From positions 2,130 to 66,129 of the forward strand of contig JBBQGH010000003.1 of the NCBI GenBank assembly GCA_038322845.1: a DNA stretch of 64,000 nucleotides. Direction: 5' to 3'. Numbering within the stretch: position 1 is the first letter of the stretch; each line of letters begins with the position of its first letter. Both the position numbers and the translations under genes were made by a program. Shown here piece after piece: positions 20,041 through 56,923 of this stretch. The notes beneath the pieces are model-generated. The model was not told the DNA's origin, searched no databases, and was given only the letters and a program-made list of their open reading frames with translations. The DNA comes from Gammaproteobacteria bacterium. GTDB lineage: Bacteria > Pseudomonadota > Gammaproteobacteria > Burkholderiales > Rhodocyclaceae.

Positions 20041-20193
20041 GTAAGACTCCCTTTAAGCCGGCGCGCGTCCCCGCTGCCGGACTATGGCAAAAAAACGGAA
20101 CGCAGCAGGGGAGTCGAGATCGGTGTGGGCGAGTGCTAACTAAAAGGCCCATAGCCGGTCGCCACACCCCCGTGGCGTTTCCGTACGTGTCTA

Positions 20194-20402
20194 TGCAGGC
20201 CGGTATCCGGGCTCGCGAGTTTTGGTACGTCGCCTTCCCATGATTGCTCACAGTGGCGAAGGGTCTGGAAACCCTAATGACGTACCCGCACTCGCTGACC
20301 GTTGCGGGGGCAGCTGAGGCTTTGCCGAGGGGGTTGATCCCTCGACGCACCTCATTCCCGTTTAACCCATCGGCTGGAAAGCCGGTTGGGCACCTTGCAC
20401 AG
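20194..20402 (-). promoter_or_regulatory. Cobalamin riboswitch
   Basis: Minus strand shows AGGTGC...TTAAACGGGAATGAGGTGC...CTGCCCCCGCAACGGT...GCCACTG...GGGAAGGC...AGCCCGGATACCGGCCT (B12 box) upstream of btuB. Confidence 0.92.
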
Positions 20403-20565
20403 GATGCCGTGCGGTGAGCTGCACGGCGGCCGGATTATAGCCTTCAAATCGCCGCTTGCGGGATGGCTCACTAAGCCGCGTGAGTACGCCCCCGCAATCA
20501 CAAACAACTTTCAAAGTAAGACGTTATTGCTTGACCTCAAAAGTCTTTTCGGCTAGTTTTCCGGG

Positions 20566-21144: not shown

Positions 21145-21322
21145 ATTCCCCTGCGGTGTTCGCCTAGGCCATATATTCCTTGAACCAATACGTTGGCATT
21201 GGCCGCGAACCACAGCGTCACTATTGTGAGCGTCCCTTGTTGGACGAACCTACGGTGACCGGAACGTGGCCACTCTGAACCTTAGGTTCAGGATGCCGGC
21301 CTAACGGCACAGGCGGGGGATC
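21145..21322 (+). ncRNA. ssrS: 6S RNA
   Basis: Terminal TCCCCTGC / GCGGGGGA pairing, CCTTGAACC and CTGAACCTTAGGTTCAGGATGCC motifs; canonical position after zapA. Confidence 0.9.
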
Positions 21323-21329
21323 TACAAAA

Positions 21330-37795: not shown

Positions 37796-38851
37796 TCAGC
37801 GCTGAACCACAAAGGGCTTGAAGTCCAGCGTATCGCGTATCTTGTTGGCGACCCGCTTGGCTTCTTGCGCATCCGCGAAAGGCCCGAGCTGGACGCGATA
37901 CGTGCCGCCCTTGGGCTGTATCTGCAAGGTGCCGGAAAGCCCGGAAACCTGCTCCGCGACGCGAGCGCGGAAACTCTCGGCGTTGTCCTGACTAGCAAAA
38001 GCGCCCAGTTGCAGGAAGATGCCGCGCAGCTCGGCCACCGTAGGCACCGGTGGTTCGGGCGTAGGCGCGTCAGACTTGGCGTCGATCTGCGCGGCGGCCA
38101 TGGTGAGCTCGGCGAGCGGATCGGCCGCCAGCAGCGGATTACTGCGGGCGCCGGCGAGCAGCGTATCACCCGGCTGCACCACTTCGACTTCCACCATCGC
38201 GCTGCCGTTGCCCACATAGCCGAGCTTATAGGCGGCTGTGTAGGACAGATCGATTAGGCGGCCAGAGTGAAAAGGTCCGCGATCATTGACGCGCACGATG
38301 ACGGATTTTCCATTGGCGATGTTGGTGACGCGCACGTAGCAGGGTATAGGCAGCGTGGTATGCGCCGCTGTCATGCCGTACATGTCATAGATTTCGCCGT
38401 TGGAGGTCTTCTGGCCGTGGAATTTTCGCCCATACCAACTGCCGATGCCGCTCGCCTTGTAGGGCTTCAACTCCTTCATCGGCACGTAATCGCGGCCCAG
38501 CACCGAGTAGGGCTTGGTCGTGGCGCGGTTCAAGGGCTCGACCCGCGGCTCGGCGTCGGGGATGGCGTCGATATTTTCCGGCGCGTTGTCACCCGGACCG
38601 TCATCCATGTAATAGCCACCGCCTTTTTTGAGCGTGTAGAGCGGCTTGGATAACGCCACTTTCGGCGCAGGCGCTTTCACCACCGGTTCAGGCGCAGAAG
38701 GCCGTGGCAGGGGCGAGCTACAGGAGGCCAGCAAGAACAAGGCAAAAGCAGCCGCGGATTGCACGGATAAACGCGGATGATCCAAAAAAATTCCGCGTTT
38801 ATCTGCGCAATCCGTGCAATCCGCGGCAAAGACTTTTTTGATTTTGTTCAC
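37796..38851 (-). CDS. rlpA: Septal ring lytic transglycosylase RlpA (DPBB + SPOR)
   Basis: GIGSWYGRKFHG, TAAHTTLP, VRVNDRGPF and SPOR LQLGAF motifs; GTG start overlaps the rodA stop; lipobox LASC at residues 41-44. Confidence 0.9.
   Translation of the reverse strand: MNKIKKVFAADCTDCADKRGIFLDHPRLSVQSAAAFALFLLASCSSPLPRPSAPEPVVKAPAPKVALSKPLYTLKKGGGYYMDDGPGDNAPENIDAIPDAEPRVEPLNRATTKPYSVLGRDYVPMKELKPYKASGIGSWYGRKFHGQKTSNGEIYDMYGMTAAHTTLPIPCYVRVTNIANGKSVIVRVNDRGPFHSGRLIDLSYTAAYKLGYVGNGSAMVEVEVVQPGDTLLAGARSNPLLAADPLAELTMAAAQIDAKSDAPTPEPPVPTVAELRGIFLQLGAFASQDNAESFRARVAEQVSGLSGTLQIQPKGGTYRVQLGPFADAQEAKRVANKIRDTLDFKPFVVQR
38751..38827. repeat. 9-nt-period palindromic element inside the rlpA 5' coding region
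   Basis: Perfect 18-bp terminal inverted repeats GCCGCGGATTGCACGGAT / ATCCGTGCAATCCGCGGC, with inner AAACGCGGA / TCCGCGTTT. Confidence 0.85.
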
Positions 38852-52919: not shown

Positions 52920-53537
52920 TCAACCCGCCCGCCGGAAGCGAAACACGGCGAGACTACCGCGCAAATTGGGCAACCAGCGCACTTCCTCACCTTCATGCAG
53001 CACCTGACGAGCGATGATTTCGATGCCACGCTGGCGACAGAAGTTTTGAAAATCAACAATAGTGCACAGGTGAATGTTGGGCGTGTTGTACCACTCGTAG
53101 GGCAGACGCTCCGAGACCGGCATATGGCCTTCGATGCCGACCTGCCAACGATGGCGCCAATAGCCGAAGTTGGGAAAAGTGACGATGGCCTCGCGACCGA
53201 CGCGCAGCATTTCGTCGATGATTTCTTCGGTATGCCGCATCGCTTGCAAGGTTTGCGAGAGGATGACGCAATCGAATGCGCCATTCTCGAAGCCGGCGAG
53301 GCCAGCTTCGAGATTGCTTTGGATTATATTCACACCGGCCTTGACGCAAGCCAGCACATTCCCGTCACTAATCTCCACGCCATAGCCATGGACGTCGCGC
53401 GCCTGGGCGAGGTGGCGCAGCAGCGCGCCGTCGCCGCAGCCGAGATCGAGCACAGTCGCGCGCGGTGCCACCCAGCCGGCGATGACATCGAAATCCGCAC
53501 GGCCGGATTGTGCGGCGAGGATAGCCTGGCTATTCAT
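52920..53537 (-). CDS. metW: Methionine biosynthesis protein MetW
   Basis: [23 protein letters not shown] and [11 protein letters not shown] motifs. Confidence 0.92.
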
Positions 53538-54670
53538 GCCACGCCCTCCGCGATGTTTTCAAAGTAAGCCCGCAGCAGACCGTGGTAGCGCGGATCGTCG
53601 AGCAAAAAAGCGTCGTGCCCATGCGGCGCGTCGATTTCCGCGTAAGAGACATCGCGTTTATCGTCGAGCAAGGCTTGCACGATCTCGCGCGAACGCGCCG
53701 GCGAAAAGCGCCAGTCTGACGTGAACGAGACCACGAGAAAATGCGCCTTTACACCGGCCAGTGCGGCAGAGAGACTGCCACCATATTCCAAGGCCGGATC
53801 GAAATAATCCAGCGTACGAGTGATGAGCAGGTAGGTATTGGCGTCGAAATAATTCGAGAATTTATCGCCTTGATGGCGCAGGTAGGATTCGATTTCGAAA
53901 TCCACGCCGAAGTGAAAGCCGATGCTGCCCGTACGCAGGCCGCGACCAAATTTCTCCATCATGGCGTCGTCGGATAGATAGGTGATATGGCCGATCATAC
54001 GGGCCAGCCGCAGGCCACCGCGCGGCACTACGCCGTGGGCGTAAAAATCGCCGCCGTGAAAATCTGGATCGGTGGTGATAGCCTGGCGCGCCACCTCGTT
54101 GAAGGCGATATTCTGGGCTGACAGCTTGGGAGCAGCGGCGATGACAATGGCGTTACGTACGCGCTCCGGAAAACTGATGGCCCACTGCATAGCTTGCATG
54201 GCGCCGAGACTGCCGCCCATGACGGCGGCGAACTGACGTATGCCGAGACGATCCGCCAAGCGTGCCTGCGCCGCCACCCAGTCTTCCACCGTCAACACCG
54301 GAAAGTGCGAGCCGTAGGGCTGGCCGGTCTTGGGATCGATGCTCGCGGGTCCGGTGGAACCGAAGCAACCTCCGAGATTATTCACGCCGATGACAAAAAA
54401 GCGACGGGTGTCCACCGGCTTGCCCGGCCCGATCATGTTGTCCCACCAGCCGATATTCTCGGCATCGCCGGCATACCAGCCGGCGACGTGATGCGAGGCG
54501 TTGAGCGCGTGGCAGACCAGCACGGCGTTAGAGTGTTCGGCGTTAAGCGTGCCGTAGGTTTCGTAGGCGAGATCGTAGGCATCGAGCACCGCGCCACTGC
54601 GGAAATGCAAGGGCTCCTCGAAATGCATGCGCTGCGCCGCCACGGCGCCGACGGAATTTCCCTCGGCCAT
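53534..54670 (-). CDS. metX: Homoserine O-acyltransferase MetX
   Basis: [16 protein letters not shown] nucleophile elbow, HGHDAFLL. Confidence 0.93.
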
Positions 54671-54700
54671 GTGTTCCTCTATGTTTTCTTCTCAATACCA

Positions 54701-54736
54701 AAAACAAAAACCCGGTCAGCTAAGCTGGACCGGGTT
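54701..54736 (-). terminator. Intrinsic terminator in the metX leader
   Basis: Minus strand AACCCGGTCCAGC-TTA-GCTGACCGGGTT followed by TTTGTTTT. Confidence 0.8.
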
Positions 54737-54742
54737 GCGAGT

Positions 54743-54857
54743 CCGCGCTTAGCCGTATTTATAAGGAAGGGTTCGAACATCACGAACTTCCTTAAGGAAG
54801 CGTTCAAACCTCATGAACTTCCTTTAGCGCCCGCAAGCTGACGGTGAAATCGGCGCT
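54743..54857 (-). promoter_or_regulatory. SAM-II-like riboswitch with an internal 62-nt insertion
   Basis: Minus strand AGCGCC-GATTTCA-CCGTCAGC-TTGC-GGGCGCT-[insert]-ATAAATACG-GCTAA-GCGCGG upstream of metX. P1 pairing and the GAUUU, UUGC, AUAAA and GCUAA SAM-II hallmarks are present. Confidence 0.75.
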
Positions 54858-54924
54858 GTCTGTAGAAATTACCTTGATGCAGACAAAATGTAAAGCCCTC
54901 ACCCCGCCGCGCGCAACGCAACGC

Positions 54925-56649
54925 TCAGGCCGCATTGAGCTTGTCGAGCTGCGTGCGCAGTTTGATCGGATCGTCCGTATTAAGCATGCGCTGCACCTTG
55001 CGTTTTAGCTCCTTGAAGTCGCTGCGCAGCACCTGCTGTTTGACTTCGAGTATTTGCGCCGGATGCATGGAAAACTGACGCAATCCCATGCCTAACATTA
55101 GCCGGGTCAGGCTAGCGTCGCCGGCCATTTCGCCGCACACCGCGACGGGCAAACCGGCGCGGGTGCCGGCCTGAATGGTGTGCGCAATAAGGCGCAACAC
55201 AGCCGGGTGTAGCGGGTCATAAAGATGCGCCACCGCTTCGTCGGTGCGGTCAATCGCCAGCGTGTATTGGATAAGGTCATTGGTGCCGATGGAGAGAAAA
55301 TCCAGCTTGTCGAGAAACACGCCCAACGCCAGGGCGGCGGCCGGGATTTCGATCATGCCGCCGACTTCTATGGCTTCGTTAAAGGGCTGGCCTTGGCCAC
55401 GCAAGGCTTCCTTGGCGAGCTGGATCAGCGATAGCGTCTGACGGATTTCCTGCGCATACGAGAGCATGGGAATGAGCATGCGCACATGGCCGTAGTGCGA
55501 GGCGCGCAGGATGGCGCGCAACTGCGCAAGAAACATTTGCGGCTCGGACAAGCAGTAGCGGATGGCGCGCAGGCCCAGCGCCGGATTGGCTTCGCTGCGC
55601 TGGCCGCGCAGGCCCTTATCGCCACCCACATCTAGCGTGCGGATGGTAACCGGCTTGCCCTCCATGGCCTCGGTCACACTGCGATATGCATGAAATTGCT
55701 CTTCTTCGTCCGGCATGTCGGCGCGGTTGAGGAAGAGGAACTCGGTGCGGAATAGGCCAATGCCAGCAGCATTGACTTCCCTGACGTGCGGCATATCCTG
55801 CGGCAATTCGATATTGGCTTGCAGGCTGATGTCTTCACCGTCAAGTGTGGTGGCGCGGGATTTTTTCAGGCGCTTGAGCTTGGAGCGTTCCAGATCCAGC
55901 TCGGTGCGGCGCAGGCGATACTCTTCGAGCACGCGCGGATCCGGATCGACGATCAGCACGCCGCGCCCGCCATCAACGATGAGCATGTCGTTTTCGCGGA
56001 TCAGCGCGCGCGCGTGATGCAAACCAACCACCGCTGGAATGGCGAGACTGCGCGCAACGATGGCGGTATGCGACGTGGCGCCGCCGAAATCGGTGACGAA
56101 GCCGCCGATTTTGAGCTGCTTGAACTGGATAGTGTCGGCCGGCGACAAATCGTGCGCCACGATGATGAGATGTTCTTCGCGTCCGCGGCGCGGCGGTAAC
56201 TGGCCAGGGTGGCCCAGCAAGACCTTCAACACACGCTCGACTACTTGCACTATGTCGGCCTTGCGCTCGCGCAGATACACATCTTCGATCTGGTCGAACT
56301 GATGCACTACCTGCTCCATTTGTTGCACCAGTGCCCACTCAGCGTTGCAGCGCCGCTCGCGGATGAGGGCGCGCGTGGCGTCAGTCAGCATCGGGTCGGC
56401 CAGGATCATTTGATGCACATCGATGAAGGCGGTTATCTCGGCTGGCGTACCCACACTGCTGCCGGCAAGCAATTGATCCAGTTCTTCACCGACTACAACC
56501 AGCGCCGCATCCAGACGGGCGATTTCCTCTTCAACCGCTTTTACAGGCAGCAAAAGGTGGGACACTTCCAGTGTGGCGTGCGACACCAGATGGGCATGGC
56601 CGATGGCGATGCCATGAGAGACCGCCAGGCCGTGGATGGTGAAGCTCAT
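54925..56649 (-). CDS. ptsI: PEP-protein phosphotransferase (PTS enzyme I)
   Basis: GGATSHTAIVARS, GIGLFRTEF and SIGTNDLIQY motifs. Confidence 0.93.
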   Translation of the reverse strand: MSFTIHGLAVSHGIAIGHAHLVSHATLEVSHLLLPVKAVEEEIARLDAALVVVGEELDQLLAGSSVGTPAEITAFIDVHQMILADPMLTDATRALIRERRCNAEWALVQQMEQVVHQFDQIEDVYLRERKADIVQVVERVLKVLLGHPGQLPPRRGREEHLIIVAHDLSPADTIQFKQLKIGGFVTDFGGATSHTAIVARSLAIPAVVGLHHARALIRENDMLIVDGGRGVLIVDPDPRVLEEYRLRRTELDLERSKLKRLKKSRATTLDGEDISLQANIELPQDMPHVREVNAAGIGLFRTEFLFLNRADMPDEEEQFHAYRSVTEAMEGKPVTIRTLDVGGDKGLRGQRSEANPALGLRAIRYCLSEPQMFLAQLRAILRASHYGHVRMLIPMLSYAQEIRQTLSLIQLAKEALRGQGQPFNEAIEVGGMIEIPAAALALGVFLDKLDFLSIGTNDLIQYTLAIDRTDEAVAHLYDPLHPAVLRLIAHTIQAGTRAGLPVAVCGEMAGDASLTRLMLGMGLRQFSMHPAQILEVKQQVLRSDFKELKRKVQRMLNTDDPIKLRTQLDKLNAA

Positions 56650-56653
56650 GGCT

Positions 56654-56923
56654 TCACTCGCCCTCGCCAAATTTGTCGGCGATGAGAGCAATGATGGCGG
56701 CGAGCGCCGCATCAGCATCGGGGCCTTCAGTCTCCACGACGATAGTGGCGCCTTTGCCAGCGGCCAGCATCATTACACCCATAATGCTTTTGGCATTGAC
56801 GCGGCGGCCGTTGCGCTCTAACCATACTTCACACACGAAAGGCGTGGCCGTCTGTGTGAGTTTGGCCGAAGCGCGCGCATGCAGCCCCAGGCGATTGACG
56901 ATTTCGACTTCCTTCTTAGGCAT
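56654..56923 (-). CDS. ptsH: Phosphocarrier protein HPr
   Basis: GLHARAS and NAKSIMG motifs. Confidence 0.93.
   Translation of the reverse strand: MPKKEVEIVNRLGLHARASAKLTQTATPFVCEVWLERNGRRVNAKSIMGVMMLAAGKGATIVVETEGPDADAALAAIIALIADKFGEGE

Follow-up and report, generated by a model that had tools for sequence, protein, structure and literature searches.

SAM-II riboswitches, which respond to S-adenosylmethionine (SAM), were described as the metA motif by Corbino et al. in 2005 (PMC1273637) and are mostly linked to terminators among the alpha- and beta-Proteobacteria (PMC2258182). The minor groove of their P1 helix is the docking site of adenines from the linker L3 (PMC12434664). Two further described elements are close to this class. 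SAM-II long loops (RF01726) was reported from Bacteroidetes and marine sequences by Weinberg et al. in 2010 (PMC2864571), while the ‘metXZ’ element of Leyn et al. (2014), a pseudoknot with a terminator found before metXW and metZ in beta-Proteobacteria, is not called SAM-II in the accessible portion of that paper (PMC4239095). Here, we analyse the metXW leader in a 64 000-nucleotide (nt) stretch of a Rhodocyclaceae genome (GenBank assembly GCA_038322845.1, contig JBBQGH010000003.1), referred to below as the window. This leader is probably a working SAM-II OFF switch of the terminator type, with a tolerated, insulated and tandemly duplicated hairpin inserted in its linker. A preliminary description of the DNA, made from its letters alone, had pointed to twin hairpins inside a SAM-II aptamer and had suggested several roles for them.

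The leader runs along the minus strand and occupies the 254-nt gap between the gene for a phosphoenolpyruvate-utilising enzyme (54925-56718) and metX (53534-54670). Two directly adjacent units, each exactly 31 nt long as the preliminary description had read them (54824-54794 and 54793-54763, minus strand), lie between GGGCGCU, the 3′ side of P1, and the A-rich linker sequence AUAAAUAC. The features of the leader and operon are as follows.

54852-54857, minus strand: 5′ strand of P1 (AGCGCC) of the SAM-II aptamer, predicted to pair with 54826-54831 and part of a 32-nt core identical to that of the closest relative, L015.
54832-54851, minus strand: P1 loop, comprising L1 (GAUUU...) together with the 5′ strand of pseudoknot helix P2 (CAGCUUGC, about 54833-54840), placed by alignment to the Rfam SAM_alpha consensus.
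54826-54831, minus strand: 3′ strand of P1 (GGCGCU), from predicted folds and the alignment of relatives.
54794-54824, minus strand: hairpin unit 1, 31 nt, part of the insert in linker L3, from sequence, pattern search and folding.
54763-54793, minus strand: hairpin unit 2, 31 nt, predicted together with unit 1 to form one 62-nt long hairpin, from sequence and folding.
54755-54762, minus strand: retained A-rich L3 tail AUAAAUAC, in which the five L3 positions that do not vary among 27 relatives are all present.
54746-54754, minus strand: 3′ strand of P2 (GGCUAAGCG), also the 5′ strand of a predicted antiterminator, recognized by inspection from its complementarity to GCUU/GC of the loop.
54700-54735, minus strand: intrinsic terminator with the stem ACCCGGUC/GACCGGGU, a loop holding GCUUAGCU and then a U tract, from predicted folds and lying within a 61-nt block identical to L015.
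53534-54670, minus strand: metX, the regulated gene, encoding a homoserine O-succinyltransferase of 378 amino acids (NCBIfam NF047916, 667 bits against a cut-off of 560; Pfam Abhydrolase_1).
52920-53537, minus strand: metW, the second gene of the operon (Pfam MetW, E 4.6e-69; TIGR02081, 268 bits).

A degenerate pattern describing both units had two matches in the window, against none in 100 shuffles. Each unit carries perfect 7-bp inverted arms (AAGGAAG/CUUCCUU, spaced by 17 bp), and the arms are thus present as two direct copies. The units differ from one another at 4 of 31 positions. Positions 11 (A/G) and 19 (U/C) form the two sides of a single pair, A-U in the first unit and G-C in the second, and the remaining differences fall in the loop (position 15) and in a 2-nt bulge (position 24). 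Among random mutants of unit 1 with four substitutions, all 11 pairs were kept in 3.4%, and in 1.1% this went along with a change on both sides of a pair. Folded singly, the units reach −9.6 and −9.3 kcal/mol (z −2.4 and −2.7), consistent with the preliminary picture of self-contained stem-loops. Taken together, however, the units are predicted to fold as a single long hairpin of 62 nt at −22.7 kcal/mol (z −3.75), as compared with a sum of −18.9 kcal/mol for two separate hairpins, and the predicted ensemble fraction that lacks pairs between the units is approximately 1.4%. Versions of the insert with two identical units fold at −20.1 and −20.8 kcal/mol, less well than the native sequence, and the differences between the units therefore add about 2 kcal/mol to the long hairpin. 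The predicted long form leaves positions 8-14 of unit 1 and 9-15 of unit 2 unpaired; in the twin form, positions 8-11 take part in pairs. During transcription unit 1 would fold first. The twin form and the long form alike bring the ends of the insert together, as a harmless linker insertion needs, and the expected number of base pairs between the insert and outside nucleotides is predicted to be just 0.08.

The insert is specific to this lineage. When the 186-nt leader was compared by BLAST with 60 relatives, query positions 1-53 and 116-176 matched adjacent stretches and exactly the 62-nt middle was absent. In all 26 metX leaders that were read from the same genus, P1 and GGCUAA are separated by a plain linker of 10 nt (the genus set comprises 27 genomes, of which the 27th, 81% complete, gave no match). 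In the closest relative, L015, whose MetX is 91% identical, a single linker nucleotide corresponds to the 62 nt here, giving a net gain of 61. The riboswitch blocks on either side of the insert, 32 nt from P1 to P1 and 61 nt from AAAUAC through the U tract, are identical to those of L015 at 93 of 93 positions, whereas 57 of 184 fourfold-degenerate sites in metX (31%) differ between the two genomes and the spacer after the terminator could not be aligned by eye. The chance of finding no change in 93 nt at the neutral rate is approximately 1e-15, so the flanks are under constraint. This argues against a dead aptamer, the outcome that the preliminary description had named as fatal to its proposal, as far as sequence comparison can speak to binding. 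The 4/31 difference between the units indicates that some time has passed since the duplication; the flanks would have remained intact after it occurred. P1, the antiterminator and the terminator are all predicted both here and in L015, which serves as a natural control free of the insert. The L015 record also holds a group II intron match (RF00029, 56.6 bits, L015 31-104, plus strand) approximately 190 nt upstream of its metX riboswitch; the intergenic gap in the window contains nothing comparable.

By architecture and ancestry the host RNA appears to be a SAM-II riboswitch. P1 encloses GAUUU and GCUUGC in a block that fits the invariant columns of the 27 relatives, and its strands AGCGCC/GGCGCU have a mean pair probability of 0.78 in the predicted folds. 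The loop was aligned to the SAM_alpha consensus via a second SAM-II of the same genome, and GAUUU and CAGCUUGCGGGCGC within it show no variation across the 27 relatives in the alignment. The five invariant positions of the A-rich L3 are contiguous in AUAAAUAC, 3′ of the insert, and the docking adenines of L3 would map onto this tail. GCUU and GC of the loop are complementary in sequence to AAGC and GC of the downstream strand, pseudoknots being outside the scope of the folding tools used, and both strands of P2 are invariant in the relatives, leaving zero covariation to count. The 3′ strand reads GGCUAAG here and in L015, one A fewer than the GGCUAAAG of 25 out of 27 aligned relatives. Its partner in the minimum-energy fold is predicted to be 54718-54725 (GCUUAGCU), and the resulting 8-bp antiterminator, GGCUAAGC with GCUUAGCU, is mutually exclusive with the terminator. 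We note in passing that the shortened strand (54746-54754, and likewise in L015) has in GCUUAGCU a perfect 8-bp antiterminator partner. The genomic context also fits, with metX and metW downstream and both a terminator and an antiterminator predicted.

The curated models did not recognize this leader. Rfam searches of 54600-54960, at the gathering threshold and at E values up to 10, found neither SAM_alpha (RF00521, cut-off 36 bits) nor SAM-II long loops (RF01726, cut-off 44 bits), and the sole match in the leader, to mir-454, was judged to be due to chance. A genome-wide SAM_alpha search, in which 150 of 496 candidates were scored, gave no match at the metX leader, and the genome's best matches to SAM-II long loops, of 15.4 and 15.0 bits, are at other places. 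A covariance model, R1, built from the leaders of the 27 relatives, matched the leader in two pieces: 54804-54866 (39.8 bits), covering P1, L1 and the 5′ strand of P2, and 54700-54800 (44.9 bits), covering the L3 tail, the 3′ strand of P2 and the terminator. As R1 still matches both halves, the Rfam miss can be attributed to the 62-nt interruption. The comparison of the SAM_alpha and long-loop models with and without the insert, proposed in the preliminary description, thus gave no match with the insert in place, while the orthologous insert-free metX leaders of relatives reached the SAM_alpha cut-off in 10 of 20 loci. On another contig of the same genome (C26, 3323-3395, minus strand; L004 1501-1573) lies an uninterrupted SAM_alpha match of 36.7 bits with a terminator, upstream of metZ, the gene for O-succinylhomoserine sulfhydrylase (NF006003, 697 bits). 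Its aligned sequence agrees almost base for base with the flanks of the insert. With SAM-II elements before metXW and metZ, both steps from homoserine to homocysteine would therefore be under SAM-II control in this genome. The alignment of this second SAM-II with the flanks, the scores of the relatives and the two R1 matches together support the earlier naming of the host RNA as SAM-II. A weak SAM_alpha-like match on contig C10 (21089-21160, minus strand; 21.9 bits, below the cut-off), with GAAUG replacing GAUUU, may be a decayed or divergent third copy.

The doubled insert was also found in independent sequence data. A 158-nt contig from run X1, possibly the source sample, spans 54700-54857 with no differences. 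In run X2, from another study, a 497-nt contig spans 54600-54950 with six substitutions and two indels, all of them outside 54700-54857. A 344-nt contig from run X3 spans 54612-54857; 16 substitutions and two indels were counted, and the 14 substitutions listed, together with both indels, lie at or below 54699. Since contigs from two studies bridge the whole insert, the doubling is not an assembly artefact. In the diverged strains the listed differences and indels are confined to the spacer and the first part of the coding region, with none in 54700-54857; the doubled insert is present in all of them and is far better conserved than the neighbouring spacer. In run X4, from a third study, where contigs are short and of low depth, an 82-nt contig spans 54772-54853, including the junction of the units, while a 177-nt contig links 54760 to 54811 through 17 other letters, a hint of a shorter, single-hairpin-like relative form.

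We then asked how common a hairpin at this site is among other SAM-II leaders. Species genomes were scanned for the aptamer core with GGCUAA 18-48 nt downstream of it, which yielded at least 120 loci; the scan used a single P1/P2 sequence and a single range of lengths, and its counts are lower bounds. Among the 120 loci listed, at least 108 resemble SAM-II and have an expanded L3, with GAUUU upstream and without an earlier P2 strand. At least 78 of these pass a strict rule of one hairpin, an A-rich tail and GGCUAAAG, and at least 30 more mostly fail the tail rule only. The other 12 listed loci comprise six without GAUUU within 45 nt and six canonical leaders matched via a later GGCUAA. The 108 listed linkers hold 107 distinct hairpin bodies at the same site as here, with a median folding z of −3.06 (99 of 108 below −1 and 78 of 108 below −2). 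The 8-nt tail that follows the hairpin is ACAAAUAC in 35 of the 108 and AUAAAUAC, the tail found here, in 27, which makes it the second commonest. Record titles among the listed loci include Undibacterium, Herbaspirillum, Collimonas, Methyloversatilis, Casimicrobiaceae, Legionella and others. In these groups, then, SAM-II commonly carries an optional helix at this site, and it is the doubling alone that is rare. The statement in the preliminary description that SAM-II has only a few nucleotides here accordingly holds for the genus, with its 10-nt linkers in 26 of 26 leaders, but not for the class, in which a single hairpin is widespread in Burkholderiales and Legionella-like genomes.

Its other statement, that a doubled module is unusual, is borne out. 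None of the 78 strict cases listed has two hairpins or an internal tandem repeat, nor has any of the 108 listed leaders as a whole, so a double hairpin is not the family consensus; a periodic signal in one record (L127) proved to be just the two arms of a short hairpin, with no repeated unit. Linkers longer than 48 nt were scanned for only in 401 genomes of the order, with the same P1 sequence. For lengths of 49-79 nt this gave two matches, one of which is this genome, and the other is false, its linker being 32 nt long. When tested with SAM_alpha and SAM-II long loops at E values up to 1, 20 of 20 single-hairpin leaders were missed, and the curated SAM_alpha model seems blind to the single-hairpin variant. 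Eight of the Herbaspirillum and Collimonas leaders (L065, L066, L076, L083, L110, L058, L080 and L109) have, besides the linker hairpin, an apparent extra self-complementary stretch in L1, between GAUUUGA and CAGCUUG. A Legionellaceae record (L047 11-154, plus strand) carries a TwoAYGGAY RNA (51.7 bits, above the cut-off) just upstream of its SAM-II-like leader.

No further copy of the unit was found. In its own genome, the search proposed for the 31-mer returned the two units plus one unrelated match with one mismatch when run as a pattern search, and nothing longer than 18 nt with blastn-short. No copy was detected in any of 27 other genomes of the genus or, allowing up to three mismatches, of 400 other genomes of the order, and species-representative genomes gave no match to the exact degenerate pattern. 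Two metagenome matches (L044 and L045) are the same unrelated coding sequence and lack the outer arms. A palindromic element within rlpA (window 38751-38827) is unrelated by eye and gave no match when the units were searched with blastn-short. Whereas dispersed repeats of the repetitive extragenic palindrome (REP) or miniature inverted-repeat transposable element (MITE) type occur in many copies at unrelated loci, this unit exists as just two adjacent copies, the second of which is a tandem duplicate.

Together, these observations suggest how the leader could work and how it may have arisen. With SAM bound, the GGCUAAG strand would be held in a pseudoknot with the P1 loop, allowing the terminator to form; without SAM, it would pair with GCUUAGCU inside the terminator and block it. 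A quasi-palindrome of approximately 31 nt would have entered L3 at its start, immediately after P1, and been duplicated in tandem later, for the net gain of 61 nt. The insertion site would be the permissive site of the optional hairpin in other beta-proteobacterial and Legionella-like SAM-II. The insert is probably tolerated because it pairs only with itself, which brings its ends together, so that the A-rich L3 tail could still run along P1. At equilibrium, the pair of units would behave as one long hairpin and thereby restore the usual single-hairpin architecture. Most likely, the doubling is neutral or nearly so; a regulatory role for it is conceivable.

Several observations weigh against this explanation. 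The complete lack of insert differences among strains could mean selection rather than neutrality, and the same could be said of the compensatory pair and the gain of approximately 2 kcal/mol from the unit differences. Membership of SAM-II rests on similarity to relatives, with the curated Rfam model silent. The 3′ strand of P2 is one A short of the genus consensus GGCUAAAG, a loss common to L015. Finally, the predicted weights of antiterminator and terminator are 0.47/0.50 here as against 0.86/0.13 in L015, at equilibrium and with pseudoknot and kinetics ignored, so the insert may have an effect on the switch.

One alternative is that the hairpin is a selected add-on at the RNA level, which might stack on the short 6-bp P1 to stabilize or pre-organize the aptamer, or might make RNA polymerase pause or serve as a protein-binding site, thereby adjusting the SAM threshold of metXW, the lineage having regained and then enlarged a hairpin lost by its genus. 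We regard this as fairly unlikely. It would account for the recurrence of a foldable hairpin at exactly this site in at least 108 leaders with 107 sequences, for an insert without differences in strains whose adjoining spacer has many, for the A-U/G-C exchange and stronger long hairpin, and for a tail, AUAAAUAC, that is typical of hairpin-bearing leaders. Yet the 26 of 26 same-genus leaders without a hairpin show that it is dispensable, and survivorship alone accounts for insertions seen only at a permissive site. The idea of a folding-delay or pause timer, raised in the preliminary description, is weak on its logic, because the 62 nt precede the 3′ strand of P2 and the interval from aptamer completion to terminator is unchanged; a delay before the pseudoknot 3′ strand leaves the decision window no longer than before. 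A related proposal, which we consider unlikely, is that the optional hairpin is a functional third helix of beta-proteobacterial SAM-II that the curated model overlooks, for example one stacking on the short P1 and stabilizing it. This lineage, its genus having lost the helix, would have regained one de novo at the same nucleotide and doubled it, with the four differences selected to fuse the copies into one long helix. If true, the leader would amount to a natural experiment in gain of structure that bears on riboswitch tuning. That the insertion instead broke the aptamer, leaving a constitutive attenuator or a decaying relic and metXW regulated by other means, is very unlikely. Such damage would fit the failure of Rfam models to recognize the leader, the A missing from the 3′ strand of P2 and the separation of the first L3 positions from the rest by 62 nt, but flanks unchanged at 93 of 93 positions against 31% change at neutral sites, and units that have diverged at 4/31 since their duplication, argue otherwise; the missing A is shared with an insert-free relative, and the silence of Rfam carries little weight when it also misses 20 of 20 natural single-hairpin leaders tested.

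At the DNA level, perfect 7-bp inverted arms in two direct copies within a transcribed leader could be read as twin operators, 31-bp tandem palindromes bound by a dimeric regulator that would block or modulate metXW transcription. This is highly improbable: the regulator would have just this one site, since the pattern occurs nowhere else in the genome; the change in the inner stem compensates at the RNA level; and the sequence-unrelated hairpins at the same RNA position in other taxa point to structure in the RNA and not to a DNA word. We give the least credence to the possibility that a small mobile palindromic repeat of the REP or MITE type happened to land here twice, or that the doubling is an artefact of assembly. 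Tandem palindromic units are typical of such repeats, and there is another hairpin-forming repeat in the same window, inside rlpA, but that element is unrelated in sequence, no further copy of the unit turned up in the genome, in 27 genus genomes, in 400 order genomes or in species genomes, and the two metagenome matches are unrelated coding sequence. The contigs from two studies that span the whole doubled insert speak against an artefact. Of the ‘tolerated mobile hairpin’ of the preliminary description, then, tolerance looks right, whereas nothing points to mobility, with zero other copies at any of these levels. A tolerated, tandemly duplicated hairpin in a working SAM-II switch remains our preferred explanation.

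Scans for other signals in and around the leader added little. No sigma-70-like site was found by a promoter scan of 54650-54960, and a TTTACA-17-TAATTT arrangement at 54894-54866, spotted by eye, fails the criteria of that scan; we make no claim for it. A simple terminator scan did not list the terminator at 54700-54735. Its sole listing was a weak 5-bp stem inside unit 2, a terminator-like call at 54771-54787 (minus strand) composed of the unit 2 inner stem and CCUUCCUUAU, with five pairs and five T in the tail. It is doubtful that this stem terminates transcription, because the U-rich run is paired once the full hairpin forms, and we consider the call weak. Elsewhere in the window lie a cobalamin riboswitch (20182-20412, minus strand; 91.8 bits) and a 6S RNA (21145-21323, plus strand; 68.9 bits).

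The riboswitch itself and the gene behind it are ordinary, and the finding is of modest value. What it adds is an aptamer of the 52-nt pseudoknot class that appears to tolerate 62 extra linker nucleotides while its flanks are under strong constraint. Relatives with no hairpin, the single-hairpin variants and this leader form a natural series for studying the effects of a linker helix on the folding and switching of SAM-II. The history proposed above suggests that optional riboswitch helices may arise when a quasi-palindrome enters a permissive site and is then duplicated in tandem. For annotation, there is a blind spot, with SAM_alpha missing this leader as well as 20 of 20 single-hairpin leaders tested; the ‘metXZ element’ and the opposite-strand ‘sRNA’ (small RNA) family RF02424 seem to be further names for this one RNA.

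No description of a doubled hairpin in SAM-II turned up in a limited search of open-access text; published full alignments may already show the single optional hairpin. With the metA motif (RF00521) this leader shares a 6-bp P1 enclosing GAUUU...CAGCUUGC, the A-rich linker and the downstream GGCUAA(A)G strand, as well as its position before methionine biosynthesis genes and an intrinsic terminator after P2. It differs in having a linker of 71 nt instead of about 10, in giving no match to the model and in a 3′ strand of P2 that is one A short. SAM-II long loops is a recognized SAM-II variant with enlarged loops, but it does not match this leader. The metXZ element is a pseudoknot-forming leader with a terminator, of which this genome carries one before metXW and one before metZ. 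Its description in the accessible portion of PMC4239095 has six conserved regions and no doubled hairpin. From the sequences here we take the metXZ element to be SAM-II, an equation of our own and not a statement of that paper.

RF02424 (Bp2_287), a Burkholderia ‘sRNA’ predicted by SIPHT, has a printed consensus that holds the reverse complement of the SAM-II core, with a hairpin in the linker. It differs in being annotated on the other strand, and it has no match to the leader in the window. It matches the locus of the second SAM-II of this genome, that on contig C26 (L004 1477-1598, plus strand), and 5 of the 20 single-hairpin leaders tested (L145, L114, L098, L052 and L123, all below the cut-off of 70 bits), with matches of 23-41 bits overall. 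In L004 and in four of the five loci, match and riboswitch are on opposite strands, the strand for L145 not being listed. Judged by its consensus, RF02424 may be the riboswitch annotated on the wrong strand.

The leader also resembles the single-hairpin variants. They too have a hairpin that starts 0-3 nt after P1, followed by A[C/U]AAAUAC GGCUAA, and both kinds of leader have this order in common; in the variants the hairpin sequence is free while its foldability is kept. The leader in the window agrees with them in having a self-contained helix after P1 (0.08 pairs to the outside) and then the tail AUAAAUAC. Where the variants have one hairpin without an internal repeat, in an L3 of 21-47 nt (median 34 among the 78 strict cases listed), it has two tandem units, 62 nt in all, in a genus that is otherwise without a hairpin at this site.

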